Of a stretch of 64,000 nt of DNA, positions 3,460 through 63,767 are shown piece after piece (position 1 is the stretch's first letter; each line of letters starts with the position of its first letter). The notes beneath the pieces were generated by a model. That model was not told where the DNA came from and searched no databases. It saw only the letters and a list, made by a program, of their open reading frames with translations. The translations under genes were made by a program, and so were the position numbers. The stretch is from a virus, in the IMG/VR virus record IMGVR_UViG_3300021335_000003; one strand, written 5' to 3'.

Positions 3460-3488
3460 TTGACAATCGTAAAAAACTACTATATAAT
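3460..3488 (+). promoter_or_regulatory. Consensus sigma70 promoter TTGACA-N17-TATAAT
   Basis: Exact -35 (3460-3465) and -10 (3483-3488), upstream of the AGGAG RBS of the glycosyltransferase operon. Confidence 0.8.
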
Positions 3489-43179: not shown

Positions 43180-43458
43180 TTAATTGTATTTCAAATGTGG
43201 ACAAGCAAGCATAAAGAAACTTAATTCTTTTTCTTGTTCAAACCCAACTCTGTTGTATTGATTTAGATTTTTCATTTCGTCAAAGCCAATACTATTGCCA
43301 AAAAAATATCTACCACTCAAATTATCTTCGATCCAATCACAGATGGCTCTATCAATATTGTACTTCCGCTGTATATCAACAGTGGCAAAGTGAGGAGGGC
43401 AAAAAGTTACCCTCCTTAAACCTAAAACATCTAATGGATTGGGTTCTTTTAGTTTCAC
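43180..43458 (-). CDS. Hypothetical phage protein
   Basis: 92 aa, GTG start with GGAGG RBS. Confidence 0.65.
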   Translation of the reverse strand: MKLKEPNPLDVLGLRRVTFCPPHFATVDIQRKYNIDRAICDWIEDNLSGRYFFGNSIGFDEMKNLNQYNRVGFEQEKELSFFMLACPHLKYN

Positions 43459-44735
43459 GCAGCCTCCTCATAATGGGCAGTTATACCAAACGGACCTTCT
43501 AAGTTTTTATTGTGATTGCTGTGAATAATAAAAATAGTTTCACAGTATTCCGAATCACCCCAGCTATCCCAAGCATACCCATCTGTGAACATAATGAATT
43601 TTTTAGGTTGAATATCGTTGTCTTTCATGTATGTCCAGTTTACCATAAAGTCAGTGCCGCCACCGCCTAGCACTTCATATTCACTCAAGTCTCTACCACC
43701 ATCAGCAGTAAAGTCTTCTTCGTTATAAACTGCTGTATCAAAACACCATACTTTGATCTTGTAATCTTTGTATTCGTCCATGATACCTTTAATTTCGCTT
43801 AGGAAGTCTTTTGCTTGATCGTCACCAATAGAACCTGACATATCAATGCTAACACAAATGTCAATTGTATCTTGGAAGTTCATTCCTGGAAGAATAGCAC
43901 CTGTGTGCCAGCCTTTACGTGATGGACGAGCAAATGTGTAATCGCTTTTGATTGTACTTTGGATTTGCTGACGTAGCAATTCACGCCAGTTCATTTTAGG
44001 CTCTGTTAGTTGTTTAATAAGACGTTGCACACCGCCTGGAACATTACCAGCACCAGCAGTTTGTGCAGCCTGAATCATTGCTTCTTTGATCTCGTCTTTG
44101 ATTTGATCAAGTTCGCCTTTACTGTACTTAGGACGGCCTTTGCCGTCTTTGTTATCTTCTTCTGTGCCGTCACCTTCTAAATCCAAATGCTCGTCTAGCA
44201 TTTCACCTAATTGCTCTAAAAACTCTTGTCCGTTTTTTTCTGCTTCTTTAAACAGTTCGTCATATACTTCTTCTGAACTCCAGCCTTCGTATTTAAAATC
44301 TTGATAGCAATCTACAATGCTAGGCTTTTCACCAATGCGATCACGTACAAGCAAATTATTTACAATATAGTCAGCAGCAATGTTATACAACATTGGATTG
44401 CGTTCATCTCTACGACCTAAGTGATCAAATACACAGTGTAGAATTTCATGTGCAATAACAAACTCAATCTCTTTGTTATTCATTGCATTAAAGAATTGTG
44501 TATTAAAGTACAAGTTACGTCCGTCAACTGCGGCAGTAGGGCACCACTCGTCTGCACATTGAATACGCAAACGTGTTGCCATATTACCAAAGAACGGATG
44601 TCGTAGTAGCAAACCTACTCGTGCAATAATGATGCGATCTAGCACATCTTTACGCATTTCGTCTAATTCTTTTTCTGTAAGATCTGGATTAGGTTCCCAG
44701 TTTTTTAATTTACTTGATGTATCTTTAGTGGACAT
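43455..44735 (-). CDS. HEXXH metallopeptidase-VWA domain protein (DUF2201-like)
   Basis: AHEILH zincin motif, NIAADYIVN, MIDAS DMSGS, GGGTDF and FTDG. Confidence 0.85.
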   Translation of the reverse strand: MSTKDTSSKLKNWEPNPDLTEKELDEMRKDVLDRIIIARVGLLLRHPFFGNMATRLRIQCADEWCPTAAVDGRNLYFNTQFFNAMNNKEIEFVIAHEILHCVFDHLGRRDERNPMLYNIAADYIVNNLLVRDRIGEKPSIVDCYQDFKYEGWSSEEVYDELFKEAEKNGQEFLEQLGEMLDEHLDLEGDGTEEDNKDGKGRPKYSKGELDQIKDEIKEAMIQAAQTAGAGNVPGGVQRLIKQLTEPKMNWRELLRQQIQSTIKSDYTFARPSRKGWHTGAILPGMNFQDTIDICVSIDMSGSIGDDQAKDFLSEIKGIMDEYKDYKIKVWCFDTAVYNEEDFTADGGRDLSEYEVLGGGGTDFMVNWTYMKDNDIQPKKFIMFTDGYAWDSWGDSEYCETIFIIHSNHNKNLEGPFGITAHYEEAA

Positions 44736-44764
44736 ATTGTACCTCTTTATCAGTGCCTAGTATT

Positions 44765-44792
44765 AATATAACATATTTAATTGTATTGTCAA
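44765..44792 (-). promoter_or_regulatory. sigma70-type early promoter TTGACA-N16-(TG)TATATT
   Basis: Upstream of the VWA gene; the leader carries TAGGCACTGAT. Confidence 0.65.
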
Positions 44793-44799
44793 GCAAATA

Positions 44800-44833
44800 A
44801 AGAAAAAATGGGCAGCCTAAGCCACCCATTTTC
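44800..44833 (-). terminator. Rho-independent terminator after the AAA gene
   Basis: Minus-strand GGGTGGC-TTAG-GCTGCCC stem followed by ATTTTTTCTTT. Confidence 0.75.
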
Positions 44834-44840
44834 ACTCTAA

Positions 44841-45926
44841 TTACACCGCCTGTGCTGCTTTTATATACTTACCATAACGGTTGTGGAACTCGTCAAAGCA
44901 TTCCACTTCGTCTGGATCAATTGGCAGCGCATACTGTGTTAGCGCAAGTTTAATACCCATAACAACTAGTTCTGTGTCAAAGTTATCCATTGCAAAGCGT
45001 AGGAAGTTATTAACTTTATCATCAAACTTTTTGTCATTTTTATCTGATGCTTCTTTTAGTTCATAGCAAAGACTAACAGTCAGCGAATACATGGCACTGA
45101 TTTCTGACGTGCTCATGTCTTTTACTTTGCCTGCAAGAATATCAGTTGGATTAGGCATACTTGCGGCTACCTTGCGGTGCGCCATAAACTTAACACCGAG
45201 TCCTTCGCCTACTGAGCCGGAAACCAAATCAGTAGTAGTACCTTCGTCAAGTTCGTCATCAAGTAACTCACTTACAAACGCCCAACTACGTGGTGTTGCA
45301 AATGAACGACTTGCGGATTTAGGATCGAAGTCATACAAGTCTTTTTTAGCAAAAGTCAAGTAACCAACAACGTCCTTGTGTTGATTGTTATCAACTGCCC
45401 ACTGGAACCAATCGTCAAATTCGACAGCCATTTCAATGTGAATAAAGCGATTAGCAAGTGGTGAAGGCATACGATATGTAACGCCTTTGTCTGCTTCACG
45501 GTTACCCGCAGCAACGATGATAACATTGTCCGGCAGTTTATATTGCCCGACACGACGATTAAGAATCAACTGATATGCTGCCGCTTGTACAGCAGGAGCA
45601 GCTGAGTTCATCTCGTCAAAAAATACAACAATATTGTCGTATTGTGCTGCCATTTCTTCGTCTGGCAGTTCTGAAGGAGCACCCCAAACCATTTTAACAT
45701 TTGTGCTGTCAAAATATGGAATGCCTTTAATATCAGTTGGATCCCAAAGACTCAACCGAATATCAATTAGATGTGAGTTAGAAAACTCGTCTGTAACCTG
45801 CGCAACGATATCGGATTTACCAATACCTGGAGGACCCCACAAGAACACAGGACGCTTTTTCTTCATAGCGTGACGCAGTGCGTTTTTTGCTTTGTTAGGA
45901 GATAGTGTACGAATAACGTCTGACAT
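44841..45926 (-). CDS. MoxR-like AAA+ ATPase
   Basis: Walker A GPPGIGKS, Walker B VFFDE, AAGN sensor and LANRF Arg finger; adjacent VWA partner. Confidence 0.9.
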   Translation of the reverse strand: MSDVIRTLSPNKAKNALRHAMKKKRPVFLWGPPGIGKSDIVAQVTDEFSNSHLIDIRLSLWDPTDIKGIPYFDSTNVKMVWGAPSELPDEEMAAQYDNIVVFFDEMNSAAPAVQAAAYQLILNRRVGQYKLPDNVIIVAAGNREADKGVTYRMPSPLANRFIHIEMAVEFDDWFQWAVDNNQHKDVVGYLTFAKKDLYDFDPKSASRSFATPRSWAFVSELLDDELDEGTTTDLVSGSVGEGLGVKFMAHRKVAASMPNPTDILAGKVKDMSTSEISAMYSLTVSLCYELKEASDKNDKKFDDKVNNFLRFAMDNFDTELVVMGIKLALTQYALPIDPDEVECFDEFHNRYGKYIKAAQAV

Positions 45927-49581: not shown

Positions 49582-49982
49582 GATACTTCACTTTTGCCTT
49601 TGTCTATTGGTACTACATTAATATAACCGGCATTTCGTGATGTGTCAAGTCCTTCTTCTGCCAACATATTATAAACAATGTCTTTGAACCAACGATCTAC
49701 AATTTGCTCTGGTTCGTCACCTTCACTGCCATAACCTGCTGCCAATAATTCTTCAATAAAGTAATCATTCCAATCAAGTTCAAAAAACCCGTTGCGAATA
49801 TTATCTTCATTGACTTTCATATCCAACACATTTACCCAAGGTTCTCCTTTTTTAGTAGCATATGCTTTAGGATCTTTTACTTTGAGTTTTTTGTCTGATT
49901 CTGCTTCTAGTGCAGCTTTTTGTTCAGCAATACGCTTTTCTTCTGCTTCAATACCTGTAATCTTCTTTAGCCATTGTTTCAT
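49578..49982 (-). CDS. Hypothetical phage protein
   Basis: 134 aa, GFFELDWN motif, AAGGA RBS. Confidence 0.7.
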   Translation of the reverse strand: MKQWLKKITGIEAEEKRIAEQKAALEAESDKKLKVKDPKAYATKKGEPWVNVLDMKVNEDNIRNGFFELDWNDYFIEELLAAGYGSEGDEPEQIVDRWFKDIVYNMLAEEGLDTSRNAGYINVVPIDKGKSEVS

Positions 49983-50051
49983 ATTAGTTTCCTTATCTTT
50001 TCGTATTCCTCTTCGCTTTTGATGCCTTTTGGAATACTATCCAAGTTTTCT

Positions 50052-50948
50052 TTAAGTGCCCCAGGCATTTCCGAATAGGCTAATGTGGAGTCTTGGCGAG
50101 AACCTCCACCCTCGTTCCATACAGAGGTTCGCCACCTCTTGTACGTTGAGAGTGTATTCTTCCGACCTACCCCCAAGCGGCATGAGATATACAGGAACGT
50201 CCACGCCTGCTTCACGATAGGCGTCAACTGCTCTACCAACTTCATCAACATCGTCTTGATCAGCAACAACAAACTTAAAATACATATCGCTGCCATCAAC
50301 AAGGGAATACTCACGAGCAACGTCAGGCTTAATAGCATCATCCCAAGACTCGCCCGAAACGGATAGTTTGGGAGAACAGCTAAAAGTGAGCTGAATTCGT
50401 TCATGCTGGTTGAGATAGTTGTAGAAGTCATCGTGTAGATGCTGTGTAGTGTTGGTTTCGATTGTGACATTTTTAAGATCCTGCATACCTGGGTGTTCAA
50501 ATAGCTCGACATACAACCGTTGCCAAGCAAGTAGTGGCTCTCCGCCTGTTAGAATAAGATGAACATCTTGTCCATTATCCATAGTCCATTTGCCTTCTGG
50601 CAACAAACTAAGCAAGTGTTCTACAACTTCATCGATAGTTGCTAATTTGTTAAAGTCCTTAAACTCTGGATAGATACTTGCGTATGTATCACATCCTGTA
50701 TGCACAATAGGCAAGTCCTCAAACTTTTCTGTTTTTTCTACAATGCCATCGTCGAGCAATGCTTTTACTTCTGCATTATAACGATTGCCTTCTGCGTGTT
50801 GTTTCCAGCGATCACCTACGCTTTTATCAACACCAAAGTTCATACAACGAAAGTTACAACCAAATGTACGTAGGAATACACTGGGTACTCCTACAAACTT
50901 GCCTTCGCCTTGCACTGAATAAAATGCTTCACTATATCTTAGTTTCAT
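50052..50948 (-). CDS. queE: 7-carboxy-7-deazaguanine synthase (radical SAM)
   Basis: EAFYSVQGEG..VGVPSVFLR..GCNFRC...GCDT, TGGEP, ETN, SPKL and RLH motifs; adjacent to folE. Confidence 0.9.
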   Translation of the reverse strand: MKLRYSEAFYSVQGEGKFVGVPSVFLRTFGCNFRCMNFGVDKSVGDRWKQHAEGNRYNAEVKALLDDGIVEKTEKFEDLPIVHTGCDTYASIYPEFKDFNKLATIDEVVEHLLSLLPEGKWTMDNGQDVHLILTGGEPLLAWQRLYVELFEHPGMQDLKNVTIETNTTQHLHDDFYNYLNQHERIQLTFSCSPKLSVSGESWDDAIKPDVAREYSLVDGSDMYFKFVVADQDDVDEVGRAVDAYREAGVDVPVYLMPLGGRSEEYTLNVQEVANLCMERGWRFSPRLHISLFGNAWGT

Positions 50949-52062: not shown

Positions 52063-53199
52063 TTATTTTCCTATTGTTGATGATTCGTAAACCGAATTAT
52101 GTGTCTGAGTACAACGAATAAAAGTTGCACATTTACTTAATTGCTTGAGTTTCATTGCACCTGTATATGTGCAAGCACTACGCACTCCTCCTAGTATCTC
52201 CTGCACTGTTTTAGCTACAGGTCCTCTATAAGGCACAAGCACTGTGCGTCCTTCTGATGAACGATAATCTTTAAGTCCACCAAAATGCTTATCGTTTGCA
52301 CTTTCACTACTCATACCGTAGAACTGCACAAACTTTTTTTCTTTTATAACACGAGCATCGTTTTCAAACTCGTCTGTAATAAACCGTTTTGTGATTACTT
52401 CACCACCGCCTTCATCGTGTCCGGCAAGCATACCACCCAGCATTACAAAGTCAGCACCAGCAGCAAATGCTTTGGCTACATCGCCAGGGCAAGTGCAGCC
52501 ACCATCCGCAATAATATGGCCACCAAGACCATGAGCAGCATCAGCGCACTCAATAACAGCGGAAAGCTGAGGGTAACCAACACCAGTTTGGATCCGTGTT
52601 GTACAAACACTTCCAGGGCCGATGCCCACTTTAACAATATCTGCGCCAGCAAGAATAAGTTCCTCCGTCATTTCTCTTGTTACTACATTTCCAGCAATGA
52701 TTACCAAGTCTGGAAACTCTGCACGTACTTTGCGAACGTGTTGTGCAAAGTGATCACTATAACCATTGGCAATGTCCATACAAACATATTTCAGTCTATA
52801 ATCGCATTCTTTTTTAACTTTTTCTAGTTTGTAATAATCACTTCCGCTGGTGCCAATGCTCATGGCAACATTTTCAGTTCGCTCTAGTCCTACGTCTGCT
52901 GCATTGAAATAATCAATCAGTTCGTCAGCACTGTAAGTTTTTACAAGACAAGTAAAGATTTCACCTTCTGCTAGTTTGTCAGCCATTTCAAATGTACCAA
53001 CACCATCCATATTAGCAGCCATAATAGGAATACCATTGTAATGGATTTCATCAGGTAGCGGTTCTGCAATGTCATGATCATAGTTTCTAAATTGAAATTT
53101 ACGATGCAGTTTTACTTGACTACGACTTTTAAGTGTACTGCGCTTTGGACGAATAAGCACATCTTTATAATCTAATTTTACGTCTTCTTCTAATCTCAT
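52063..53199 (-). CDS. guaC: GMP reductase
   Basis: [43 protein letters not shown] and YRSSEG motifs. Confidence 0.95.
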
Positions 53200-53762
53200 T
53201 AATCATATTCCCACGGAAAAACAATCCAAGTGTCTTTTTCACTTGTGTCAATAGTTTGCCATACATAATCAACACCATCAAACTCTGTATGCGTTTTTTC
53301 ACACATTACGGCAAAACGTACATTTTTACCCCATACAGTATCCCAGTTTGGATTATCAGGTAAGCATCCGCTTTGCCAATCTTGTTTAATCCAATTGAAA
53401 GTAGCACCTGTATCGTTAATATCATCAACTATAAGAATATTTTTCTTTTTATCTGCATGACTTGTAAGATTTTCAAAAATACCATCTCTATCTAATTCTG
53501 ATATGTAACCAAACGCATCTTCTGCCATCCAGCAGTTTGATTCCGGTCCTGACTCGCCTTTGTTGTCACGCAGTCTAACATCTAGCGCATAATGATCACA
53601 GTCAAGTAAATGACTAAGCACAACACTAACTGGCAACCCGCCTCTGTTTAGTCCTACAATATAATCTGGACGGAATCCTGTTTTATACATTTCCAGTGCA
53701 AGTTTGTGAGCACATTTATGTACATCGTCCCATGTGTAATGTTTTCTATCTATTTTTTCCAT
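53199..53762 (-). CDS. Type I purine phosphoribosyltransferase (Gpt-like)
   Basis: [13 protein letters not shown]-binding [13 protein letters not shown], and WIVFPWE. Confidence 0.85.
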
Positions 53763-53971
53763 TCATCCATCTCTGTTTTAATTTCAGTAATTGATTCATT
53801 TGCAATACCAGCAGCCATTGACTGTACCTGCTCTAGTATGTTTTTTACTTCTGCATAATCATATGTTTGCTCAACTAGATCACTATATTCGTTGCGCAAT
53901 CTGTGTGCTTGGATACACATATCTTTCATTGCATTAATACGTTCTATCCATTGTTCAATACTATGTTGCAA
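53750..53971 (-). CDS. Hypothetical protein
   Basis: 73 aa helical ORF with GGAGG RBS. Confidence 0.6.
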   Translation of the reverse strand: MQHSIEQWIERINAMKDMCIQAHRLRNEYSDLVEQTYDYAEVKNILEQVQSMAAGIANESITEIKTEMDEWKK

Positions 53972-55019
53972 AATAATCCTCCAAACTGCCTTTGCGTTTA
54001 GTGTCTAATGTAGCACAATGGAAGCCTCCGCTCATACTACGTGCTTGACGCATTGGAAGGCCTATTGTATCAATACCATGTTTGCCTAATATGCGTCTCA
54101 ACTGCTCTTGTTTTTCATCAACAATAACCAGTTCTTCATTTACACTCAAAAAGTTCAATCCAATATAAGGTGAGCAAGGAGCAACACCTGTGTTTGCCGG
54201 CGGCACATGTAAGTCTTCTTCGCCAACCCAAATCTTATCCCAATCCTTAAATATAGGTGGATACCAATCCTCACTTAAACGTCCTGCGTTTAGTAGCACC
54301 AGTCCTGGACGCAATGGCAATACTGTGCTGTCAAAGTGTGCAAAACTATAATACTTTTCTGCTACGTGGATACGATAGCCTTTGGGTTCTAGTATAGTTT
54401 TCAGCCACTCAAAACCAAGTTGGTTGCCACTATTGCTAACTTGGCAGAGAAGATCCCTACCAAGGCGAACGATATTAGGAGCATCAAAAATAATTTCTTT
54501 GTTAACAAGGGTGGCTTCACTGCGGTCCTCCAGTTGATAATTATCATCAGTTAGAATAGGTTTAGGAGCATTTATCCATTGTACGCCTTCTTTCATCCAG
54601 CCATACAAATGTTTATAATATGCTCTAGTTTCAAAATAACGTGCCCGCATTGGGCTAGGACATTCGATAATCATATTGTCCAATGGCAGCAGCAAATCTC
54701 TTGGACAGAATGTATACCAGCCTGTGGTAGTCCATTCTGGTGTGCTGTATATTTTATTATGATCAATAGGATCAGGACGTAGTGTCTTTACACCTAGTCC
54801 TTGCAAACACTTTTCTAATCCTTCTAGATCTTCATTTGCTTCATCTACAATCCATTGTTCAATAGGTTGCCCGTCAAAGTGTTTGATATCTTCATAATCT
54901 TCACCACCATAGATAAAACTATGTGTGCTGATATTCATAGTGGGATGCACACAGTTTTCTGCTGTGCCGATAATAATTTCTTCTAATGGATCCCAATCGT
55001 TGTTACTTTGTACTGGCAA
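53961..55019 (-). CDS. Glycine/inosamine-phosphate amidinotransferase family protein
   Basis: NDWDPLEEIIIG, CPRD, FDA (Asp), HFDST (His) and GGFHCATLD (catalytic Cys). Confidence 0.9.
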   Translation of the reverse strand: MPVQSNNDWDPLEEIIIGTAENCVHPTMNISTHSFIYGGEDYEDIKHFDGQPIEQWIVDEANEDLEGLEKCLQGLGVKTLRPDPIDHNKIYSTPEWTTTGWYTFCPRDLLLPLDNMIIECPSPMRARYFETRAYYKHLYGWMKEGVQWINAPKPILTDDNYQLEDRSEATLVNKEIIFDAPNIVRLGRDLLCQVSNSGNQLGFEWLKTILEPKGYRIHVAEKYYSFAHFDSTVLPLRPGLVLLNAGRLSEDWYPPIFKDWDKIWVGEEDLHVPPANTGVAPCSPYIGLNFLSVNEELVIVDEKQEQLRRILGKHGIDTIGLPMRQARSMSGGFHCATLDTKRKGSLEDYFAT

Positions 55020-55905
55020 TATCTAGTCCTTTGATATATTGTTTGTGGAAACTTAATCTGTTTGTCTTTCCGCCTCTATTATACTGCGGAAACTTGTTAT
55101 TATAATCTATACCAAACAGCACAGTCTTACTTACACATACTCCTATATTATTACAGAAATCTGCTTGTTTGTCAACATATTTGTTTGGTATATAATCTGG
55201 TGTAAAGTTATCTAAATATTCTAATCCTAGCAATGCACCTATTTTGTTGTTGTAGTTAATTTTATGATACACAAACATTGTGTCATCATCATCTACTTTG
55301 GTATATCGCATTCCGATACGTGCATATGCAACAGGAAATGTTTTGCTTAAACTAAATGTAACATCTGTTATACACGGGTATGCTAGGTCAATGTGTATGT
55401 GCCTACAAGCGCCATAGTATGCACAATCCACTAGCACAGGTACGCCTAGTTCGCTGCACTCACGCATTAAATCGTGATATTTGTCGTGCTTGTCACCTGT
55501 GTCTGCAAATGGCAAACTAATAACAACTGCATCCGCTTTGTGTAGTTTTTCATCTTCTAGATATGCCCAAACAAACTTGTCTCTCCACGCAAGTTTGTGA
55601 TACATATATTCACCTTTGAAGCAGCGGAATCTACGCTTTGCATTGCGCATATAAAACTTGTCAAATGCTTCTGTAGTGCCGTTACTGTAACACTTGTATC
55701 CAAAGTCTTCTAATCCAGTGAACACATTAAGTGTACCTGATTTAATCCAAGTATCGTATTCGTGTAAAAATTCATCAATGATACTATCGCTATTGAGATC
55801 TGTAAAACTATAATGCTTTCTCAATAGTTTCATAGTTTCTGGATCTTGTATAGCAAATGCACTACCAAAATCCATACCACGTTTGTCATTGGGAATATCG
55901 GTCAT
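55003..55905 (-). CDS. PLP-dependent (fold I) aminotransferase-like enzyme
   Basis: GTTEAF, VLVDCAY, FSLSKTF (PLP Lys) and RIG motifs. Confidence 0.7.
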   Translation of the reverse strand: MTDIPNDKRGMDFGSAFAIQDPETMKLLRKHYSFTDLNSDSIIDEFLHEYDTWIKSGTLNVFTGLEDFGYKCYSNGTTEAFDKFYMRNAKRRFRCFKGEYMYHKLAWRDKFVWAYLEDEKLHKADAVVISLPFADTGDKHDKYHDLMRECSELGVPVLVDCAYYGACRHIHIDLAYPCITDVTFSLSKTFPVAYARIGMRYTKVDDDDTMFVYHKINYNNKIGALLGLEYLDNFTPDYIPNKYVDKQADFCNNIGVCVSKTVLFGIDYNNKFPQYNRGGKTNRLSFHKQYIKGLDIASTK

Positions 55906-56497
55906 CTTCGTCCAAAAAGGTTACTTGACTAATAACAATATCAGTAGGACCAAAGTTTGCCATACCATGCCAAGTGTCACCTTTCCAAGTGTATGTGTCA
56001 CCTGCACTCCAGCCTGTATATACTTCGTCGCCTACTTGTAATACTTGCCCTCTGTCCCAGTCGTTCATCATAACAACAGTTCTACAAACATTATGTGCAT
56101 TATCTTCTTCAATGTTGTTGTACTTTACAAATGTTGCATAGGTGTCAAAATGCCACATTAAACTACAACCCGGTGTGAGTTTTAGGAAGTTGTAATTGAA
56201 CTTCATGTGTGCATATGGTGCAATAATACTTGCTAGTCCTTTTGTAAGTTCAGGACGTATGCTCATGTAATGTAAGCTACCTTCTTTGGGTACTCCCCAC
56301 TGTGCATACATTGCTTCCAATGCTTTTTTGTTTTTTGTAGCAAACGTATCCCAACTACTATCTTCTGGGATTTCGTCTGTCATATATGTTGGAGACCACG
56401 GTAGTGTAAGCAAGTCGTTTTTATTCCAAGTAACTTCTTCTACTGAACTTTCATCAGCACCGTGTTCTCTCCAGTTTTCATAACTTCGCATATCCAT
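55886..56497 (-). CDS. 2OG-Fe(II) oxygenase-like protein
   Basis: PG..MWHFD, WSAGD and WHGMANFG motifs. Confidence 0.7.
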   Translation of the reverse strand: MDMRSYENWREHGADESSVEEVTWNKNDLLTLPWSPTYMTDEIPEDSSWDTFATKNKKALEAMYAQWGVPKEGSLHYMSIRPELTKGLASIIAPYAHMKFNYNFLKLTPGCSLMWHFDTYATFVKYNNIEEDNAHNVCRTVVMMNDWDRGQVLQVGDEVYTGWSAGDTYTWKGDTWHGMANFGPTDIVISQVTFLDEDDRYSQ

Positions 56498-57423
56498 TAT
56501 GCGTCTCCTTGTAAGTGTGCCTTTATATATTGCCTGTTTGGTATATCATATGTATCCAATATTTTTTCTAGTTTTGTTTTGTCACACTGCTCTAAGTTTA
56601 TTATATCCAGTTCTTTTGGAAATGTCAAGACATTTGTTGTCCATTTTTTATAATTTTTTGTAAATTCTGCAAGTTCTGGTAATCCTTGCCAGTTGTTTTT
56701 ATGCACAACACTGTGTATTGTATAATCAAATACATCAGCTATTTCATCTAATGTTTTTACTACTCTGCTCCAAACACTACCGCTACGCACTGTTTCATTT
56801 ATAGTTCCGTATCCATCAATACTAATAGTAAAATGCACTCTTTTGCATTTACTTAAAACTTGATAATCTTCTTCTTGTAACTTGTGCATACCATTTGTAA
56901 AATATTCCACAGATAGATTTTCTAAATTGTCAAATGTTTGTAAAAAACGTCTGTGTCTATTTGTCATAAGTGGTTCTCCACCTAAAAACACCACACGGTT
57001 TATGGTATCGGGTATGTGTGTAAATTCTTCTGTGCTGGTAATACCTTGTTTAGGCGGAAGGTTTGGATTCTTTTTAGCCCACCAACTGCTGCTCCATTCT
57101 TCCCAACAGCCGTCACAGGTCAAATCACAGATATTGTCAAACCCTACTTCCAAATAATCAAGTGTAGGATACGTCATTTGATAACGTGCATTAAAACGCT
57201 GTCTTAAACTTTCTACACCCAGTTCTTCTTCGTGCTTGCATTTACCACAACCTGGCAGCCAATCTGTTTCCATATCAGTGCGTAATTTTTTATAGATATA
57301 ACTATCCATAATTTTGCCAACATTGCCATCAAAGTGCATTACACTTTCTTTGTAACGACAGCAAGGATATATACGGTTACCCCCACGTATGTTTGTGTGA
57401 TTATATAGTGCTGCGCATTTCAT
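56497..57423 (-). CDS. Radical SAM protein with N-terminal twitch domain
   Basis: C..YPCC..CGKC, then CDLTCDGC, LGGEP and ISIDG. Confidence 0.9.
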   Translation of the reverse strand: MKCAALYNHTNIRGGNRIYPCCRYKESVMHFDGNVGKIMDSYIYKKLRTDMETDWLPGCGKCKHEEELGVESLRQRFNARYQMTYPTLDYLEVGFDNICDLTCDGCWEEWSSSWWAKKNPNLPPKQGITSTEEFTHIPDTINRVVFLGGEPLMTNRHRRFLQTFDNLENLSVEYFTNGMHKLQEEDYQVLSKCKRVHFTISIDGYGTINETVRSGSVWSRVVKTLDEIADVFDYTIHSVVHKNNWQGLPELAEFTKNYKKWTTNVLTFPKELDIINLEQCDKTKLEKILDTYDIPNRQYIKAHLQGDA

Positions 57424-58681
57424 AATCTTGTATATCCATTTCTTTTAACCACATATAATTATGATTGATAACTTCTAACATTTCTACATATTTTTGTTGG
57501 CATTGTTTTATACTCCAACTATTAATTTCCAGTAACAAATCAAAAATCATTTCTAGTCGTTTTGTGTGGTCCCATTCTTCATCGTAACTTTCGTTCCAAA
57601 AATTACCAAATGTTTTAAATCCATCTTTACGCATAAGTTCTAAACTACCAGGCGGGCCACAAAACACAAAAGGACGTCTGTTTATAATTGCATTTAAAAC
57701 TTTTTCATCATAACTAGGAAAAGGCTCATTAAATGTGCTGTAATTTACTATACTGCAAAAAGTGTTGCCATACAAGTTTTCGTTTGTGTATTCTTCTAAC
57801 ACAGGACCAGACATTTTTGTGCCTGTTGGTCTAATAAATTTATCTTCGATAGTACCACTGATATCTACAGGATCTGATTCTATATCTATACCTTTGATAT
57901 TTTCATTTAGATAATATATGCCTTCTACTACTTGGTGTTTGTGTTTTAATTCATTAATATCAAACCAAATATTTTCCAACACACGATGTTCGTTGTCTCT
58001 ATAATACCAACTATATTCTGTATCCAATTGACTTGCAAATGCTGTTATAATATGTCTATGCGGTTCATAGCGCCAATTGCCACACCAAAACCTTTTATCA
58101 ATCTTTGCCCCAATAAAGTCTTTTTCTAAAGTTTTGAATCGATTTGTTAAGGCATTTAGTGTTGCATCTTGTCTTTGTAGCTTGAAACTGTAAGTGTCTT
58201 TGTAAATATCAGTAGGATCTTCAAAACTCACATACACTGTAACATTTTTTAACTTATTTAATTTAACAAAATTTTCTACACTTTCTAATTCGGGCGACCA
58301 ATAGTTTCCTTGAGTGTTGTCTAAATTATATCTACTTGTACCATCTGCAACTAAATTTTGAATATTGCCTGTTGTATGAAAACATTGTTCAGTCAAGAAT
58401 ATATACAAACCTTCTAAATTTAAAAAATCACGTTCAATTATACCTAGTTTTAATCCTTCTATATAATCAAGTGTGCCTACATCATAAACTTGAATAAAAC
58501 TAAAAGGAAAATTTTTTAGATAACTGTTGGTGTATATTTCTTGTAAGCCTTCATAATTTTCTAGTGAAGGTAAAACATTATACTCTTTATCTACAAACAT
58601 TGTGTTATTGCCAATTTTATAAACAAAGGCTTTTTCTAATGCACTATCGGTACGTCTATATGCCTGTGAGTTGGACTGCAT
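57401..58681 (-). CDS. Putative glycosyltransferase-like protein
   Basis: C-terminal DEKVLNAI...PFV..G......LMRKDGFKTF....NESYD pattern resembles GT-B nucleotide-binding halves; tentative. Confidence 0.4.
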   Translation of the reverse strand: MQSNSQAYRRTDSALEKAFVYKIGNNTMFVDKEYNVLPSLENYEGLQEIYTNSYLKNFPFSFIQVYDVGTLDYIEGLKLGIIERDFLNLEGLYIFLTEQCFHTTGNIQNLVADGTSRYNLDNTQGNYWSPELESVENFVKLNKLKNVTVYVSFEDPTDIYKDTYSFKLQRQDATLNALTNRFKTLEKDFIGAKIDKRFWCGNWRYEPHRHIITAFASQLDTEYSWYYRDNEHRVLENIWFDINELKHKHQVVEGIYYLNENIKGIDIESDPVDISGTIEDKFIRPTGTKMSGPVLEEYTNENLYGNTFCSIVNYSTFNEPFPSYDEKVLNAIINRRPFVFCGPPGSLELMRKDGFKTFGNFWNESYDEEWDHTKRLEMIFDLLLEINSWSIKQCQQKYVEMLEVINHNYMWLKEMDIQDYEMRSTI

Positions 58682-59153
58682 ATCTATCCTCCGTGCTTAA
58701 ATTTATAAAGGTGTGTTTTGTACTATCTTTCCAACCAAATACATCACCTGCTTCCCACATAGTGTATGCTTCGTCTCCAATAACACTCATTTGTCCTTCG
58801 ACACTGTCTTCCAACATAATTATATATCTATAAATTGTTTCTGATGTAAGCCTGTGATGTTTTTTATATGCACCATATAAATCACTATGTACTGGCAAAT
58901 ACTGTCCTGGCTTAAACAAGTTAATTGCAACCGAAATGTTTTTTAGTTCTGGAAAATAACTACAAATATATTCTATGCTAGGCGGCATAGGATTTGGTTC
59001 AAAATAGTTATACAGGGTCATAGCCTCTGCACTATGCCCTGCATCTAAATACTTTTGTATTAAATCTGTATCTTTGTGATGGTCTAGTTTATATTCTAAC
59101 GCACGATAGCGTTCCATATTCCATACTGGTTCTATATTAAAATGGAGGCTCAT
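58656..59153 (-). CDS. 2OG-Fe(II) oxygenase-like protein
   Basis: PGQYLPVHSD, WEAGD and KHTFINLS..DR motifs; paralog of 55886..56497. Confidence 0.7.
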   Translation of the reverse strand: MSLHFNIEPVWNMERYRALEYKLDHHKDTDLIQKYLDAGHSAEAMTLYNYFEPNPMPPSIEYICSYFPELKNISVAINLFKPGQYLPVHSDLYGAYKKHHRLTSETIYRYIIMLEDSVEGQMSVIGDEAYTMWEAGDVFGWKDSTKHTFINLSTEDRYAVQLTGI

Positions 59154-59490
59154 TTTCTGCGTCTTGTTTGCCTTGCCAGTCTTGATGCACCATAGCGTAA
59201 ATAGTTTTAAATTTTTCGTATGCTTGTGACAGTGCTGGATAATCATTACACATATCTTCTACTTTAGCAACACTTGGCATATGATCTTCAAACTCTACAG
59301 GTTCAGTTAGTGTGATTGTAAGATCATCCATTGCAATTAAATCGTCAATTCCTGAAGTGATTGTGCTTGTGGTTATATTACTAATATCAATAGTGTGTCC
59401 ATAATGATGATTGATATCTAAATCCAGTGTATCGGTTGTGTTTATAGTTATTGTAGTTTCATCTGACATGGTAATATATTCATTAGCCAT
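59137..59490 (-). CDS. Hypothetical protein
   Basis: T/I/D-rich N-terminus and MCNDYPAL..AYEKFK C-terminus. Confidence 0.6.
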   Translation of the reverse strand: MANEYITMSDETTITINTTDTLDLDINHHYGHTIDISNITTSTITSGIDDLIAMDDLTITLTEPVEFEDHMPSVAKVEDMCNDYPALSQAYEKFKTIYAMVHQDWQGKQDAENEPPF

Positions 59491-59713
59491 TGAGCGCTTC
59501 CCTAATGTTTTCAATGTTTGCCATAACTGCTGCCCAATCTTCATCATCTACATAATCTCTTTGTGTTAGCCATAATTTTACAAAAGCATCATCGGGATCT
59601 AAATCATCCAATATACCACGAATGTTAGATTCAAAAAGACTGTAACAACTCATTAAATCACCATTGTCCATGTGAGTCATAATTTCTTGTGAGTATTCAA
59701 TAAGTTTGTCCAT
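59483..59713 (-). CDS. Hypothetical protein
   Basis: Acidic 76 aa ORF, translationally coupled. Confidence 0.55.
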   Translation of the reverse strand: MDKLIEYSQEIMTHMDNGDLMSCYSLFESNIRGILDDLDPDDAFVKLWLTQRDYVDDEDWAAVMANIENIREALNG

Positions 59714-60572
59714 TTTTCCCAACTTCCAATTTGTATTGATCCAAACACATATCTTCAATGCTTTTTTCCAGTGTAACCAAATCGCTTAACTTATCTACTA
59801 CACTAGCAACAGCATCTCCAGCTCTGCGTTCAGCTTCAATAATATTTAACTTTTTACCAGTAACTTGTTCCATAGTACTGATTACTTCACGCACACTATA
59901 GCCTACGTTAGAACCAAGACATTCATAGTCCGTATTGGCTGGTCCTCGTTCCACTCCGTTGACAATGGCACTAGCCAAATCAACAACATGAATATAATCA
60001 CGAATACAAGTACCATCCCTAGTATCATAGTCCGTACCAAAGATCTTAATGTTGGGTAATTTCTCAGCAGCCACCATAGCAGCAACACGAATAAGATGGG
60101 TAGGAACGCCCAATTGACGATTATGCCCGTCAGTACCAGATACGTTAAAAAATCTAAAGATAGTGTATCCACGGGCTTTCTCCTTTATCACATCTTCTGC
60201 TGCCACTTTACTACGTGCATATGGGCTTGCCATTTCCCAAGCACTACTAGTACTAGCAAATAGTACATGTGGTGTTTCTACACGATCCAACAAGTTAGCA
60301 GTACCCATAACATTTACTCTATAGTATTCTGTAGGCTCTTTTAAACTGTCAGGTACTACACTGCGTCCTGCTAAATGTACAACAGCATCATATGTGCCAT
60401 GCACAAACTTTGTAATATCAAAACTTGAATAGTGGTCACAGTATGCCATGATATCATTGTATTCACCATGAATATTTATATCCCAAGCAGTAACGTGATG
60501 TCCGTGTTCTTTAAGTAACTTACAAACGTGACTTCCAATATAGCCTGTAGCACCTGTGACTAAAACTCTCAT
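59697..60572 (-). CDS. galE: NAD-dependent epimerase (UDP-glucose 4-epimerase-like)
   Basis: VLVTGATGYIGSH, YARSK and FGTDYDTRDGTCIRDYIHV.DLA motifs. Confidence 0.85.
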   Translation of the reverse strand: MRVLVTGATGYIGSHVCKLLKEHGHHVTAWDINIHGEYNDIMAYCDHYSSFDITKFVHGTYDAVVHLAGRSVVPDSLKEPTEYYRVNVMGTANLLDRVETPHVLFASTSSAWEMASPYARSKVAAEDVIKEKARGYTIFRFFNVSGTDGHNRQLGVPTHLIRVAAMVAAEKLPNIKIFGTDYDTRDGTCIRDYIHVVDLASAIVNGVERGPANTDYECLGSNVGYSVREVISTMEQVTGKKLNIIEAERRAGDAVASVVDKLSDLVTLEKSIEDMCLDQYKLEVGKNGQTY

Positions 60573-60955
60573 AAGTTATAACCTCTGTATTTTACTGGTG
60601 TATCCTTTAACATAATGTCGTCATCATTTACTTGTGTAATACCAAACTCATCTACCAAATGATTATACATTTTAGCAGCAGCACTAATATATGCTACGTT
60701 TTTTTGTTTGTCAACATTGTTATCAACATATGTGTCTTTTGTAAAACTGTCATCAAAACCTATGTCACGTGCAAAGTCGCTGTGGTGTTTTGCACAAAAC
60801 TCACAGCCATTGTCTTCGCTAACATAAGAAAAAATCATTTCTCTTTCTGCTCTAGTGTAACTGTTGTCAATGCCTTTGGTAAGCACAGCATCTAAAATAG
60901 TTGCTGCGCCTTTCCAAAATTCAGGTTGTTGTTTTACAAACGATAAGAAGTTCAT
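60569..60955 (-). CDS. AhpD/carboxymuconolactone decarboxylase-like protein
   Basis: EREMI..YVS..NGCEFCAKHH motif. Confidence 0.65.
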   Translation of the reverse strand: MNFLSFVKQQPEFWKGAATILDAVLTKGIDNSYTRAEREMIFSYVSEDNGCEFCAKHHSDFARDIGFDDSFTKDTYVDNNVDKQKNVAYISAAAKMYNHLVDEFGITQVNDDDIMLKDTPVKYRGYNL

Positions 60956-61242
60956 TCTTTACTTCCGATGACTCCAAAAACAATTGTTGCAATTGTTCCA
61001 AGGTATGGAACGAGAATAGCTAATGTCCACCAAGTGTTCAATCCTGCATCACGGAGACGCTTGATTGTAACAGCAATACATGCCCAAAGTGCAGCAACAA
61101 AAATACCCAGTGCAATCAATGCACCCAATGCTCCACTTTCTAGCACAATAAATCCTGCTACGTAAGCAACAATTGATAATACAATCACTGCCCAATACTC
61201 TTGACGTTTAGCCGTTCCTTCAAATTTAAAATATTCTTTCAT
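60952..61242 (-). CDS. DUF805-family membrane protein
   Basis: F.G.A.R.EYW and KRLRDAG..WW motifs; three TM segments. Confidence 0.8.
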   Translation of the reverse strand: MKEYFKFEGTAKRQEYWAVIVLSIVAYVAGFIVLESGALGALIALGIFVAALWACIAVTIKRLRDAGLNTWWTLAILVPYLGTIATIVFGVIGSKE

Positions 61243-62417
61243 TAGTACTTCCTACTTGCTACATGATCTCTGTAGCGGTTATCGTCTCTACGCCACTGTT
61301 CACCGTTACCTTGCATAATATCAATGTAACGATCAATGGTCGCACTGGTCCAATCCGACACCTTGCCCAGATCTTTGTGTGGTGCATCTAGCAATGGACC
61401 TAGTTTGTTCATTGCATCTTCTACACTCCAAGGAACATACATACGTGTATGATCATTAGCAAAGATTTCTGGAAAACTGCGATACGCTGGAAACAGTACA
61501 TTGCATCCTAATGCATCTGCTTCACTTACAGTATTGCTTGTCCAATCTTGCAAAGCACAATTGAACAATACTTTACTACGATTTACAATATCATAGTAAT
61601 GATTCTTTTTCAAGTTTTCATAAATTACAAGCTGACCACGCTCTTCCATTTTTCTAGCACGGTCAATATACTTCTGATTGTTGCTGCGTAATGGTCCACC
61701 TTGTACAATACAAAACTCTACGTCTGCTGTACCAGGAGTACCATACCATTCTTCAATCATGTCCATATAAAAGTCTGGTTGTTTCTCTTGATCAAAACGT
61801 GCTGCAAATACTACACGATTGTCACGGTTTTCCCAAGTGTTGATTTCACCAACACGTAGTGCAACTTCTGTTTTATCAAAAGCAAGTCCGCTGATGTTGT
61901 AGATAGGCGCTTTCCAGTTTGCAATTTTCATGTGTGCAACCATTTCTTCATTACTTGCTAGTACGCCAGTAACAAATTCGTTGCACATTTCTTCATACAA
62001 ACTCATCCACTTGCCCATACCCCAAACATGCACAAAGTCATCTGGATCAACAGCTTGTGCTAAACAACGAATCCAAACCTGTGGACGTTGTTCTGTGGGA
62101 ATCTGATCCATAATGTAAGGCAACGATTCCATACCAGGCTGGAACATATCTTCAAAGAAAATAACATCTTCACCTGTAACTTCACCGTTACGCATCATTT
62201 GCACCAAGTTCATCATTTGCGACATTGCAAAGTAGGAACGGCCGTGTGCATCTAGCACCTGGCCTACTTGAATTGCTTTTGTATTGTCAATTGTTGTGCC
62301 AGGCACATTAACCCAATCGATGGAGCGGCGCTGGAACGCACGCCTACTCCATTCTTCAAGTTGTAATGTATACCTGCCTTCATAGGGCTCTAAACCCATA
62401 TAAAACAGTTTTCTCAT
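61242..62417 (-). CDS. GT-B (GT4-like) glycosyltransferase, possibly DNA-modifying
   Basis: VVFAARFDQEKQP and ALQDWTSNTVSEADALGC...P.YRSFPE motifs. Confidence 0.75.
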   Translation of the reverse strand: MRKLFYMGLEPYEGRYTLQLEEWSRRAFQRRSIDWVNVPGTTIDNTKAIQVGQVLDAHGRSYFAMSQMMNLVQMMRNGEVTGEDVIFFEDMFQPGMESLPYIMDQIPTEQRPQVWIRCLAQAVDPDDFVHVWGMGKWMSLYEEMCNEFVTGVLASNEEMVAHMKIANWKAPIYNISGLAFDKTEVALRVGEINTWENRDNRVVFAARFDQEKQPDFYMDMIEEWYGTPGTADVEFCIVQGGPLRSNNQKYIDRARKMEERGQLVIYENLKKNHYYDIVNRSKVLFNCALQDWTSNTVSEADALGCNVLFPAYRSFPEIFANDHTRMYVPWSVEDAMNKLGPLLDAPHKDLGKVSDWTSATIDRYIDIMQGNGEQWRRDDNRYRDHVASRKY

Positions 62418-62636: not shown

Positions 62637-63089
62637 TTATGCTGGGTATACAATTTGACAGCCGTTTTCGCCATCTTCGGCAACATCAATAACAACAAAC
62701 CGGCCGGGATATTTGCTGTTAATCTGTGTATACAAGTCATCTGCAATCATTTCACATGACTTGTAATCTAGTTGCAGAATATCACCTGCATACAGTGATT
62801 CTAGCCAACGTTTGAATTGAATAAATTCAATATCACGATCATTGTGTGTAACTTGGATCTGCACTTTAAAGTGGAACATATGTCGATGTGGATAACCTAA
62901 GAAACTCACATCATATTCGTCACCTGTTGCCAGTGCTGGATCATCTAATGCTGCTGGATACTTGTGGATACCTTCTTTTGTAAAAGTTACCCAAATACTA
63001 CGTTTTGCATTTTCTAATGCGTTTGTCAATTTTGCGTCCTCTTCTTTCATGCGCCTTAACATATATTCATAATAGCGTTCTTGTTCCAC
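62637..63089 (-). CDS. Divergent QueD/6-pyruvoyl-tetrahydropterin synthase-like T-fold protein
   Basis: EGIH...HRH zinc ligands, SCE and V.EDGENG. Lacks the canonical CxxxHGH Cys. Confidence 0.6.
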   Translation of the reverse strand: MEQERYYEYMLRRMKEEDAKLTNALENAKRSIWVTFTKEGIHKYPAALDDPALATGDEYDVSFLGYPHRHMFHFKVQIQVTHNDRDIEFIQFKRWLESLYAGDILQLDYKSCEMIADDLYTQINSKYPGRFVVIDVAEDGENGCQIVYPA

Positions 63090-63597: not shown

Positions 63598-63767
63598 GAT
63601 TTTTTCACCTTGTACATTTCGTTGTATATGTTCCAACGTTGTTTGTTGTATTCATTTATTTGATCTTCAGTATAGTTGTTCTTTTGCATATTGTCAATGA
63701 TTTTATTTACATCGTCAAGTGCCATTTGCAACATTTCTAATCTGCTTGCTCTTTCATGCTCGTCCAT
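63594..63767 (-). CDS. Small hypothetical protein
   Basis: Helical ORF overlapping both neighbours. Confidence 0.55.
   Translation of the reverse strand: MDEHERASRLEMLQMALDDVNKIIDNMQKNNYTEDQINEYNKQRWNIYNEMYKVKKS

Follow-up and report, generated by a model that had tools for sequence, protein, structure and literature searches.

A run of minus-strand genes at positions 53961-62417 of the virus record IMGVR_UViG_3300021335_000003, from an uncultured giant phage of marine origin, is described here; the whole stretch of 64,000 nucleotides that was analysed is called the window, and megablast of all 64 kb against 50,697 phage records gave no match. The run had been interpreted from its letters alone (the sequence-only reading) as a single module of eight genes for tailoring a guanidino sugar. 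Its layout was drawn exactly in that reading: 53961 is the stop of an amidinotransferase gene, 62417 is the start of a GT4-like glycosyltransferase gene, every gene between them lies on the minus strand, and stops and starts overlap or abut. The named genes are all intact, and each enzyme type named earlier received some support. The single module was not borne out. Three evolutionary layers make up the run, namely Unit A, with the GT4-like transferase and a GalE-like epimerase; Unit B, a cassette with a GT-B-fold protein of its own; and two unrelated insertions, encoding a DUF805 protein and an AhpD-like protein. Beyond the genes named earlier, five further open reading frames (ORFs) were found within the run, those for the DUF805 and AhpD-like proteins and small ORFs of 91, 136 and 73 residues. 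Scans with Pfam, PHROGs and NCBIfam left five of the run's proteins without a family, so that folds or motif alignments were needed instead.

The run is listed in the direction of its transcription, with the basis of each assignment in brackets (SDR, short-chain dehydrogenase/reductase; 2OG, 2-oxoglutarate; SAM, S-adenosylmethionine; PLP, pyridoxal 5'-phosphate; relatives are cited by L or G number).

61242-62417, minus strand: GT4-like GT-B glycosyltransferase of Unit A, 391 residues (weak Pfam matches and family alignment)
60952-61242, minus strand: small membrane protein of family DUF805, 96 residues (Pfam DUF805, E 5.8e-17)
60569-60955, minus strand: AhpD/CMD-like protein, 128 residues (TIGR01926 and TIGR00778, weak and below cut-off)
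59697-60572, minus strand: GalE-like extended SDR epimerase of Unit A, 291 residues (Pfam Epimerase, E 6e-37)
59483-59758, minus strand: small conserved ORF, about 79-91 residues (homologs 49-68% identical in L008 and L010; matches no family)
59137-59547, minus strand: small backbone ORF, about 110-136 residues, left edge of the cassette insertion site (conservation in relatives)
58656-59153, minus strand: Fe(II)/2OG oxygenase-like protein B of the cassette, about 165 residues (HxD...H and Arg)
57401-58681, minus strand: GT-B-fold protein of the cassette, 426 residues (AlphaFold2, Foldseek and VIA-align)
56497-57423, minus strand: radical SAM enzyme with an N-terminal twitch (auxiliary Fe-S) domain, cassette core, 308 residues (NF033640)
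56600-56628, minus strand: perfect sigma70-type promoter, TTGACA-17-TATAAT (12 of 12 positions match)
55886-56497, minus strand: Fe(II)/2OG oxygenase-like protein A, cassette core, 203 residues (HxD...H and Arg; paralog of B)
55003-55905, minus strand: short fold-type I PLP protein with an aminotransferase fold, cassette core, 300 residues (invariant residues and AlphaFold2/Foldseek)
53961-55019, minus strand: StrB1-like L-arginine amidinotransferase, cassette core, 352 residues (phmmer against PDB)
53750-53971, minus strand: small backbone ORF, 73 residues, right edge of the cassette insertion site (synteny in cassette-free relatives)

A cassette nested in a 7-deazaguanine gene cluster

Two sets of viral loci were compared: one of 62, collected around the amidinotransferase (40-97% identity), and one of 80 (of 481 related viral loci), collected around the phosphoribosyltransferase (PRT) of the adjoining deazapurine cluster. 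In the first set the amidinotransferase was counted in 59 loci, the PLP protein in 52, the radical SAM enzyme in 45 and a 2OG oxygenase in 42; lower ranks were held by FolE (30), PRT (29) and QueE (28), and by both transferases and GalE (15-19). The core has a canonical order of radical SAM, 2OG, PLP and amidinotransferase, with the PLP gene adjoining the amidinotransferase gene in 46 of 50 loci. Co-occurrence in relatives, on which the sequence-only reading had made its module depend, was found for this core, whose four families occur together in nearly all 62 loci.

The PRT-anchored set revealed a backbone of a 180-residue ORF, DpdL, a small ORF, a transferase, a small ORF, the 73-residue ORF, PRT, FolE, QueE and an exonuclease. 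Three states of this backbone occur in nature: with the GT4-like transferase alone, with the GT4-like transferase and GalE, and with the GT4-like transferase (with or without GalE) plus the cassette. Because cassette-free relatives such as L098 join the counterpart of the 59137 ORF directly to the counterpart of the 53750 ORF, with PRT following, the cassette, at 53961-59153, is a precise insertion between two backbone genes. Conservation of the ORF at its left edge extends to 19 amidinotransferase-anchored loci and to PRT loci free of the cassette, such as L098, L117, L134 and L149, and the protein atlas places it in viral hypothetical clusters only. The same slot holds the cassette in two sublineages, the amidinotransferases of which are 60% identical and the GT4 proteins of which are only about 20% identical. 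An apparent remnant of oxygenase B in the cassette-free loci L091 and L092 was rejected as an artefact of overlapping frames.

Furthermore, the cassette is also found apart from the cluster. At 31 loci it was found with no deazapurine gene within 10 kb; among other neighbours it adjoins a tail sheath stabiliser and a virion structural protein in L026, a tail-fibre-like protein in L017 and an RNA-binding protein in L040; FolE lies further off in some contigs that lack nearby deazapurine genes (G006, G009, G005 and the Campylobacter phage CP220).

The two transferases of the run follow this division. A hidden Markov model (HMM) of the GT4-like family (A6) matches 73 of the 111 loci with PRT/FolE, with no exception where the flank is complete, and none of the 31 amidinotransferase loci that lack PRT/FolE, whereas an HMM of the 426-residue GT-B protein (A2) matches cassette loci only, 25 of 26, the 26th being cut at its end. 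Since the former is tied to the PRT/FolE cluster and the latter to the cassette, each transferase belongs to a different unit, the GT4-like one to Unit A and the 426-residue one to Unit B. In the sequence-only reading the two had been placed in one module together with GalE.

The protein of 391 residues is called GT4-like from its family. Pfam Glycos_transf_1 and Glyco_trans_1_4 scored 19-20 bits against cut-offs of 26-27 (E about 1e-3), and the family alignment A6, with 14 members, showed GT4-type motifs, an E-x7-E-like 'E..GIS..E' and 'FPHR.APEKQ'; in the protein atlas it falls in viral clusters of which 21-92% of members carry Glycos_transf_1. It is always placed directly after DpdL and a small ORF, and is absent from the phages phiST, CP220 and S-SCSM2R. 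The family adjoining DpdL comprises two subfamilies about 20% identical, both with GT4-type motifs: the 391-residue form is always followed by GalE, and genes for a phosphomannomutase, a UDP-glucose/GDP-mannose dehydrogenase and an SDR lie immediately upstream of the 350-residue form. The GalE-like protein itself is an intact extended SDR with GxxGxxG (GATGYIGSH) and YxxxK (YARSK), scoring 201.7 bits with TIGR01179, below the equivalog cut-off of 262.3, and ending about 40 residues short of the model.

The insertions are distributed otherwise. DUF805 is absent from the amidinotransferase-anchored loci and is found elsewhere in the cluster of relatives, after PRT in L134 (76% identity) and also in L100 and L138. 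The AhpD-like gene has no homolog in any fetched locus and is present only in this window. GuaC, of the GMP reductase/IMPDH family (52063-53199, between PRT and FolE), was found among fetched loci only in the window, L003, L095 and L114, and is a recent addition to the cluster.

The flanks of the run are deazapurine genes. Downstream of the cassette lie the 73-residue ORF, PRT, GuaC, FolE, a QueE-like gene and a 5'-3' exonuclease gene; two flanking genes bear directly on the argument.

62637-63089, minus strand: DpdL ortholog, context (identity to phiST DpdL; Cys replaced by Leu)
53199-53762, minus strand: PRT of the deazapurine cluster, context (Pfam Pribosyltran, E 5.6e-11)

The first of these had been called QueD-like and is in fact DpdL. 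A phmmer search of PDB returned nothing for it, and its identity was resolved by comparison with phiST, with 38% identity to CGPG_00067 (DpdL) against 18% to phiST QueD; its 'LGYPHRH' aligns with 'LSLNHRH' of DpdL and with 'CKFLHGY' (C-x3-H) of QueD, Leu replacing the catalytic Cys. DpdL is a QueD paralog proposed to decarboxylate 7-carboxy-7-deazaguanine (CDG) (PMC10516641). In phiST, which encodes FolE, QueD, QueE, DpdL and DpdA3, all guanine is replaced by 2'-deoxy-7-deazaguanine (dDG) (PMC10516641). The window PRT is 27% identical to that of phiST. Neither DpdA/tRNA-guanine transglycosylase (TGT) nor a true QueD was found in the window, and TGT (PF01702) was not found in five related contigs, four of them 23-48% and one 91% complete. 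When phiST DpdA3 was searched against the window by tblastn, the sole match (E 0.023) fell inside the GT4-like gene, which has the same position as DpdA3 in phiST; the 391-residue protein was accordingly considered as a DpdA3-like transglycosylase, and this was rejected by the GT4 motifs in the alignment. The cluster contains no QueC or QueF, a QueC search of the related partial contigs turned up PP-loop matches that were weak (20-25 bits) and lay far from the cluster, and ThyA was found in one related partial contig.

This phage group shares the combination of PRT, FolE, QueE and DpdL with phiST and with BUCT-ZZ01, a cultured freshwater Synechococcus phage (ON615601.1). A nucleotide-level route, in which the base and phosphoribosyl pyrophosphate give a nucleoside monophosphate and then a deoxynucleoside triphosphate (dNTP), may lead to full replacement of G beside or instead of the DpdA3 base exchange. 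In BUCT-ZZ01 (L176:8638-10167) DpdL is immediately followed by a GT4-like transferase 70% identical to that of the window, and the pair sits within a QueE-PRT-QueD-FolE cluster that carries no cassette; no paper on the DNA chemistry of this phage was found. Variants of the cluster carry a YhhQ/Vut_1-type transporter (L107:9122-9727), of a family that imports preQ0/preQ1, a PnrA/Bmp nucleoside-binding protein (L125:7763-8854), a xanthine/uracil permease (L115:8392-9684), or a phosphomannomutase with a UDP-Glc/GDP-Man dehydrogenase and an SDR (L134:2207-4418), so that the cluster is repeatedly joined by genes for salvaging bases and supplying sugar nucleotides.

Transcription signals were scanned as well. 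The perfect promoter at 56628-56600 falls within the 3' end of the radical SAM gene, with the next gene starting about 100 nt further on. All window-type relatives retain it, although their radical SAM proteins are only 67-93% identical, and it recurs at the same relative place in L028, which lacks deazapurine genes. The window has 14 sites of the form TTGACA-N16-18-TANNNT where 6.5 +/- 2.5 would be expected, all in agreement with gene orientation, and those in or near the run are at 63697, 60714 and 56628. A second perfect TTGACA-17-TATAAT occurs at 3460-3488 on the plus strand. The terminator scan and the general promoter scan did not rise above chance; the strict TTGACA-type sites alone exceed it. 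Of the T4-type late promoter word TATAAATA there is a single copy in the 64 kb (60473-60480) where 11.3 +/- 3.5 are expected, a depletion so strong that the word is unusable for classing genes. The strict promoters point to early transcription by the host polymerase; as weak evidence, this would suit a task on nucleotides or DNA a little more than the decoration of virions late in infection.

Two further observations concern the surroundings. An ORF of 183 residues (49979-50530) lies in another frame inside the QueE-like gene, and its conservation in relatives is probably a shadow of QueE. Upstream of the deazapurine region, at 43455-45926, a conserved pair encodes a 361-residue AAA-type ATPase (phrog_1297) and a 426-residue protein (phrog_1314), and the same pair again adjoins the cassette in L035 and L048.

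Cassette enzymes and the predicted core chemistry

Unit B is a portable cassette of six genes, for a 2OG oxygenase, a GT-B protein, an N-twitch radical SAM enzyme, a second 2OG oxygenase, a PLP protein and an amidinotransferase. The last was matched by phmmer against PDB to StrB1 (1bwd) at E 4.7e-84 and 286 bits, with HsvA at 1e-61, SxtG at 3e-57 and human arginine:glycine amidinotransferase (AGAT) at 2e-56, these three at 195-212 bits; the identity to StrB1, counted from the phmmer alignment, is about 41%, and a Pfam scan gave no match. Aligned with StrB1 and AGAT, it keeps FDAxN (Asp), H-x-D-S-T (His) and GGFHCATLD (Cys), the intact motifs that had been claimed for it. The alignment with StrB1 is ungapped where AGAT has 7+6, HsvA 6 and SxtG 4+3 extra residues before the FDA motif. 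Placement between StrB1 and AGAT was made by PDB bit scores and these indel patterns, on which the enzyme is judged nearer to StrB1 than to glycine amidinotransferase. The enzyme has 2612 environmental relatives at E <= 1e-10. A second amidinotransferase paralog, 36% identical, was seen at L026:14677-15663, and some cassette loci have one a few kb downstream.

The PLP protein was assigned from motifs and fold. In the 12-member alignment A1, D160, Y163, S187-K188 and R196 ('SLSK...aRiG') are invariant, the Lys, Asp and Tyr having the spacing of class I/II aminotransferases. Its AlphaFold2 model (pLDDT, the predicted local distance difference score, 84.6; pTM, the predicted template modelling score, 0.86) had PatB, HisC, CobD and AspAT as its top Foldseek neighbours (E 6e-11 to 1e-8, probability 1.0), with NifS also listed. 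By sequence there was no Pfam match at E <= 0.01, TIGR01140 reached E 0.006 and the PDB profile search E 0.28. No Pfam or NCBIfam match to DegT/DnrJ/EryC1/StsC was obtained, nor was any protein of that type among the top Foldseek neighbours listed. A PLP enzyme following aminocyclitol logic had been proposed; the PLP fold of type I, with Lys188, Asp160 and Tyr163, stood, and the sugar-aminotransferase type (DegT/StsC) did not.

The radical SAM enzyme scored 172.4 bits with NF033640 (N_Twi_rSAM) against a cut-off of 170, in accord with the N-twitch assignment made earlier. Its invariant residues are C3, C21, C22, C59 and C62, the cluster C99-x3-C103-x2-C106, and GGEP at 148-151, and a PDB profile search returned generic SPASM/twitch relatives, namely ChlB, SkfB, YydG, MoaA, GDGT-MAS and BlsE. 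The two oxygenase-like proteins, A and B, are 33% identical over 87 residues, and in an alignment of 20 sequences covering both paralogs (A3) H116-x-D118, H177 and R139 are invariant. Pfam Asp_Arg_Hydrox matched B at E 4.5e-4 (20.5 bits against a cut-off of 22.6), and the PDB profile search was weak (AtsK, E 1.2e-3; ALKBH8, E 0.04). The true start of B is probably M32 of the 196-residue ORF, because residues 1-31 merely mirror the overlapping neighbour gene.

The 426-residue protein, earlier called GT-like, has a GT-B fold by AlphaFold2 (pLDDT 79, pTM 0.83), Foldseek and VIA-align. Foldseek against PDB listed WaaG and SdgB first, then others, at E 3e-4 to 1e-3. VIA-align placed T4 beta-glucosyltransferase at the top (Z 11.9; root-mean-square deviation 4.6, 266 residues aligned), followed by the HY126 DNA arabinosyltransferase (10.4), a fucosyltransferase (10.0) and T4 alpha-glucosyltransferase (9.8), with many others at 9-9.8. 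A search of viral structures in BFVD led to an uncharacterised Caudovirales family of uncultured phages. This phage family is large, and the position of the gene varies within the cassette.

A sequence of reactions can be proposed for these enzymes. The radical SAM enzyme, the 2OG oxygenases or both would convert a C-H or C-OH by oxidation into a carbonyl, or would hydroxylate it; the PLP enzyme would transaminate the carbonyl to a primary amine; the Cys-His-Asp triad of the amidinotransferase would move the amidino group of L-arginine onto this amine, giving a cationic guanidino group; and the 426-residue GT-B would transfer or receive a sugar-like carrier. The core of the scheme, oxidation or hydroxylation, then transamination, then Arg-dependent amidination to a guanidine, is given an even chance from the motifs and folds, and no better because the PLP protein is atypical and the amidinotransferase family takes many amines. 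The logic from hydroxyl to ketone, amine and guanidine was already part of the sequence-only reading and is reasonable, because the core genes co-occur and the amidinotransferase is StrB1-like; the acceptor named there, DNA or a deazapurine, is no more than possible, 31 cassette loci having no deazapurine gene within 10 kb and some standing beside tail genes.

Several findings weigh against the proposal. The cassette holds no kinase, nucleotidyltransferase or cyclitol genes. The presence of HsvA, SxtG and AGAT among the PDB matches reflects a family that takes glycine, polyamines and other amines too. By fold, the PLP protein lies closest to amino-acid aminotransferases, to C-S lyases and to a decarboxylase (HisC, PatB, CobD), not to DegT/StsC, and at 300 residues it is 60-100 residues shorter than such enzymes, the full two-domain length being about 330-400; from both points it might be no transaminase, or might not act on a sugar. 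Its cellular relatives, mostly in Bdellovibrionota, are paired with twitch radical SAM enzymes without an amidinotransferase, and their surroundings contain more radical SAM enzymes and unknowns, with no clue to the target. BtrN, to which the radical SAM enzyme had been likened, was not among its PDB profile matches, and no specific kinship to sugar or cyclitol dehydrogenases was seen. Finally, the cluster slot also carries unrelated cargo (DUF805, AhpD-like, GuaC).

Candidate acceptors of the proposed guanidino group

Unit A, with small ORFs besides the GT4-like transferase and the GalE-like epimerase, is integral to the PRT-type 7-deazaguanine cluster of DpdL, PRT, FolE and QueE, and its role would be to put a hexose, supplied via GalE, on the product of that cluster; hexosylation of the cluster product by Unit A is likely on this evidence of association. 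That glycosylation of a 7-deazapurine base is within reach of such enzymes is illustrated by GT4-type HuiG in huimycin biosynthesis (PMC7439116). What Unit B does in this phage is judged with less assurance. Its coupling to the deazapurine product is attractive because the cassette is nested, in two sublineages, in an operon with a transferase and an epimerase, and it is tentatively proposed, at somewhat under even probability, that the cassette tailors the sugar which Unit A would attach to this product, whether a nucleotide or DNA. Because it occurs independently, brings a transferase with it and shares its slot with assorted cargo, the cassette may act on something else, and action on another glycan or a small molecule, as it must have in phages without the cluster, is rated as nearly an even prospect.

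One form of such action would be a guanidino sugar for a virion-protein or host-envelope glycan, with the cassette in the cluster only by chance, through a hyperplastic slot of a T4-like genome. The tail sheath stabiliser, virion structural protein and tail-fibre-like protein that adjoin the cassette elsewhere (L026, L017) suggest it, as do the GT-B that the cassette brings with it and a slot whose contents vary among close relatives and include unrelated genes (DUF805, AhpD-like, GuaC). No flippase, polymerase or lipid-carrier transferase was found in or near the cassette, however; the promoters are of early type, and the nested position has been kept in two deeply diverged sublineages. Decoration of a surface glycan is rather unlikely on balance.

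Alternatively, the DNA itself would be hypermodified, with 7-deazaguanine replacing G and being glycosylated in DNA, and with the cassette making an amino and then a guanidino sugar, so that the DNA becomes cationic and resistant to restriction. The nesting of the cassette inside the DpdL/PRT/FolE/QueE cluster argues for this, given a cultured analog, phiST, with 100% dDG DNA (PMC10516641), and so does the obligate presence of the GT4-like transferase in the cluster; the 5'-3' exonuclease gene next door and promoters of early type, as for the DNA-modification genes of T4, are consistent with it. The best structural neighbours of the cassette GT-B are phage DNA glycosyltransferases (Z 11.9, 10.4 and 9.8; PMC13326640), yet the margin of Z over ordinary GT-B proteins is small and the viral fold search gives only an uncharacterised family. 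A DpdL-type pathway is expected to give 7-deazaguanine without a side chain for the sugar, and DpdA/TGT was seen neither in the window nor in the five related contigs, all of them fragments or partial. No amidinotransferase that acts on DNA is known. Literature searches on guanidino hypermodification of DNA returned nothing, and those on DpdL nothing beyond one paper. The distribution is also adverse: the 31 cassette loci have no deazapurine genes nearby and some stand beside tail genes, the complete genome of S-SCSM2R, which is without FolE, has an amidinotransferase module of a more distant kind, and CP220 has an amidinotransferase module, yet its DNA is reported with dADG (2'-deoxy-7-amido-7-deazaguanine) in place of dG (cited in PMC10516641). 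Hypermodified DNA of this kind is thus considered unlikely. The specific version in which DNA or the dNTP pool contains glycosylated 7-deazaguanine, its base made by the PRT route and its sugar added by the GT4-like enzyme and then, in cassette phages, aminated and Arg-guanidinylated, is held to be improbable.

A diffusible product would draw on both units, FolE, QueE, PRT, GuaC, the GT4-like transferase and the cassette together making a free glycosylated 7-deazapurine similar to tubercidin, huimycin or dapiramicin, or an aminocyclitol-like compound, directed at the host or competitors. A PRT and a GMP reductase with a CDG pathway lacking QueC is the gene logic of tubercidin (bioRxiv 10.64898/2026.04.15.718813), a GT4 enzyme glycosylates N2 of the deazapurine in huimycin (PMC7439116), StrB1 is an antibiotic-pathway enzyme, and the authors of S-SCSM2R label its homologs 'antibiotic synthesis genes' (PMC12801897). 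Such a product is nonetheless quite improbable, with no exporter, resistance gene, regulator or cyclitol synthase at the locus, GuaC confined to the window and a few relatives, and a secreted antibiotic of little obvious use to a phage. The idea that a preQ1-like base is guanidinylated at its aminomethyl group, which the sequence-only reading had offered as its alternative, fares worst and is very improbable: preQ1 does have the primary amine that an amidinotransferase needs, and the related cluster L107 encodes the YhhQ/Vut_1-type transporter, but QueC and QueF are missing from the cluster and only weak PP-loop matches lie elsewhere on related contigs, DpdL goes with side-chain-free dDG in phiST (PMC10516641), the PLP, radical SAM and 2OG enzymes of the cassette would be left without a role, and the cassette is found without any deazapurine genes as well.

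The radical SAM/PLP/amidinotransferase cassette is among the most frequent unexplained enzyme modules of large phages, and the present locus gives it a defined neighbourhood, a 7-deazaguanine cluster that always comes with a sugar transferase. The association of GT4, DpdL and PRT, also seen in the cultured cyanophage BUCT-ZZ01, suggests that phages may take their deazaguanine chemistry as far as glycosides and that a route at the nucleotide level (PRT) may operate alongside base exchange by DpdA. A cationic guanidino group on DNA or on a virion glycan, if true, would be chemistry new to phages, with possible effects on evasion of restriction and defence, and a guanidino sugar on deazaguanine in DNA, if true, would have no forerunner in any DNA, either as a glycosylated deazapurine or as a guanidino-sugar hypermodification.

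Comparison with known systems

The closest solved relative of the window amidinotransferase, StrB1 (PDB 1bwd), an L-arginine:inosamine-phosphate amidinotransferase, belongs to the streptidine branch of the streptomycin pathway, in which the aminotransferase (StsC) acts first and StrB1 follows. The two amidinotransferases share the same Asp/His/Cys motifs and lack the AGAT-type insertions, and the window PLP gene lies directly upstream of the amidinotransferase gene, which would correspond to the same order of amine first and guanidine second. They differ in that the window PLP protein is short and HisC/CobD/PatB-like rather than DegT/StsC-like, in that no inositol dehydrogenase, kinase or phosphatase is present, so that oxidation would fall to the N-twitch radical SAM enzyme or the 2OG oxygenases, and in the phage setting.

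Among phages, CP220 and CPt10 of Campylobacter carry an interchangeable module of radical SAM and 'glycine amidinotransferase' genes (Timms et al. 2010, PMC2853527). The complete genome of the cyanophage S-SCSM2R has AHBA-synthase-like (AHBA being 3-amino-5-hydroxybenzoic acid), radical SAM and amidinotransferase genes that were called 'antibiotic synthesis genes' without data (PMC12801897); here a 35% identical amidinotransferase was found beside a 2OG oxygenase, a radical SAM enzyme, a DegT-like enzyme and transferases, with no FolE. Both phages resemble the window in having clusters of radical SAM enzymes, transferases and an amidinotransferase (29% identical to that of the window in CP220, 35% in S-SCSM2R). 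CP220, however, has GT-A enzymes and five radical SAM enzymes, S-SCSM2R has the DegT-like aminotransferase, and neither module is nested in deazaguanine genes.

The flanking cluster is best compared with that of phiST, with which the window shares a DpdL ortholog with the same Cys-to-Leu replacement, FolE, QueE and PRT. The window differs in lacking a detected DpdA3 or true QueD, and its cluster always comes with a GT4-like transferase, to which the cassette is added in this lineage. The biosynthetic clusters for huimycin/dapiramicin and tubercidin likewise join 7-deazapurine core genes to GT4-type HuiG, or to a PRT and a GMP reductase without QueC; these are secondary-metabolite clusters of actinomycetes with regulators and without an amidinotransferase, PLP protein or twitch radical SAM enzyme, and the likeness is drawn at the family level only. 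For the cassette transferase, T4 beta- and alpha-glucosyltransferase and the 5-hydroxycytosine arabinosyltransferase of HY126 (PMC13326640) offer the nearest parallel. They are phage-encoded and have a minimal GT-B fold, and those of T4 are early genes, whereas their sequence identity to the 426-residue protein is about 8% and no pathway to a hydroxymethyl- or hydroxy-pyrimidine is seen in the window.

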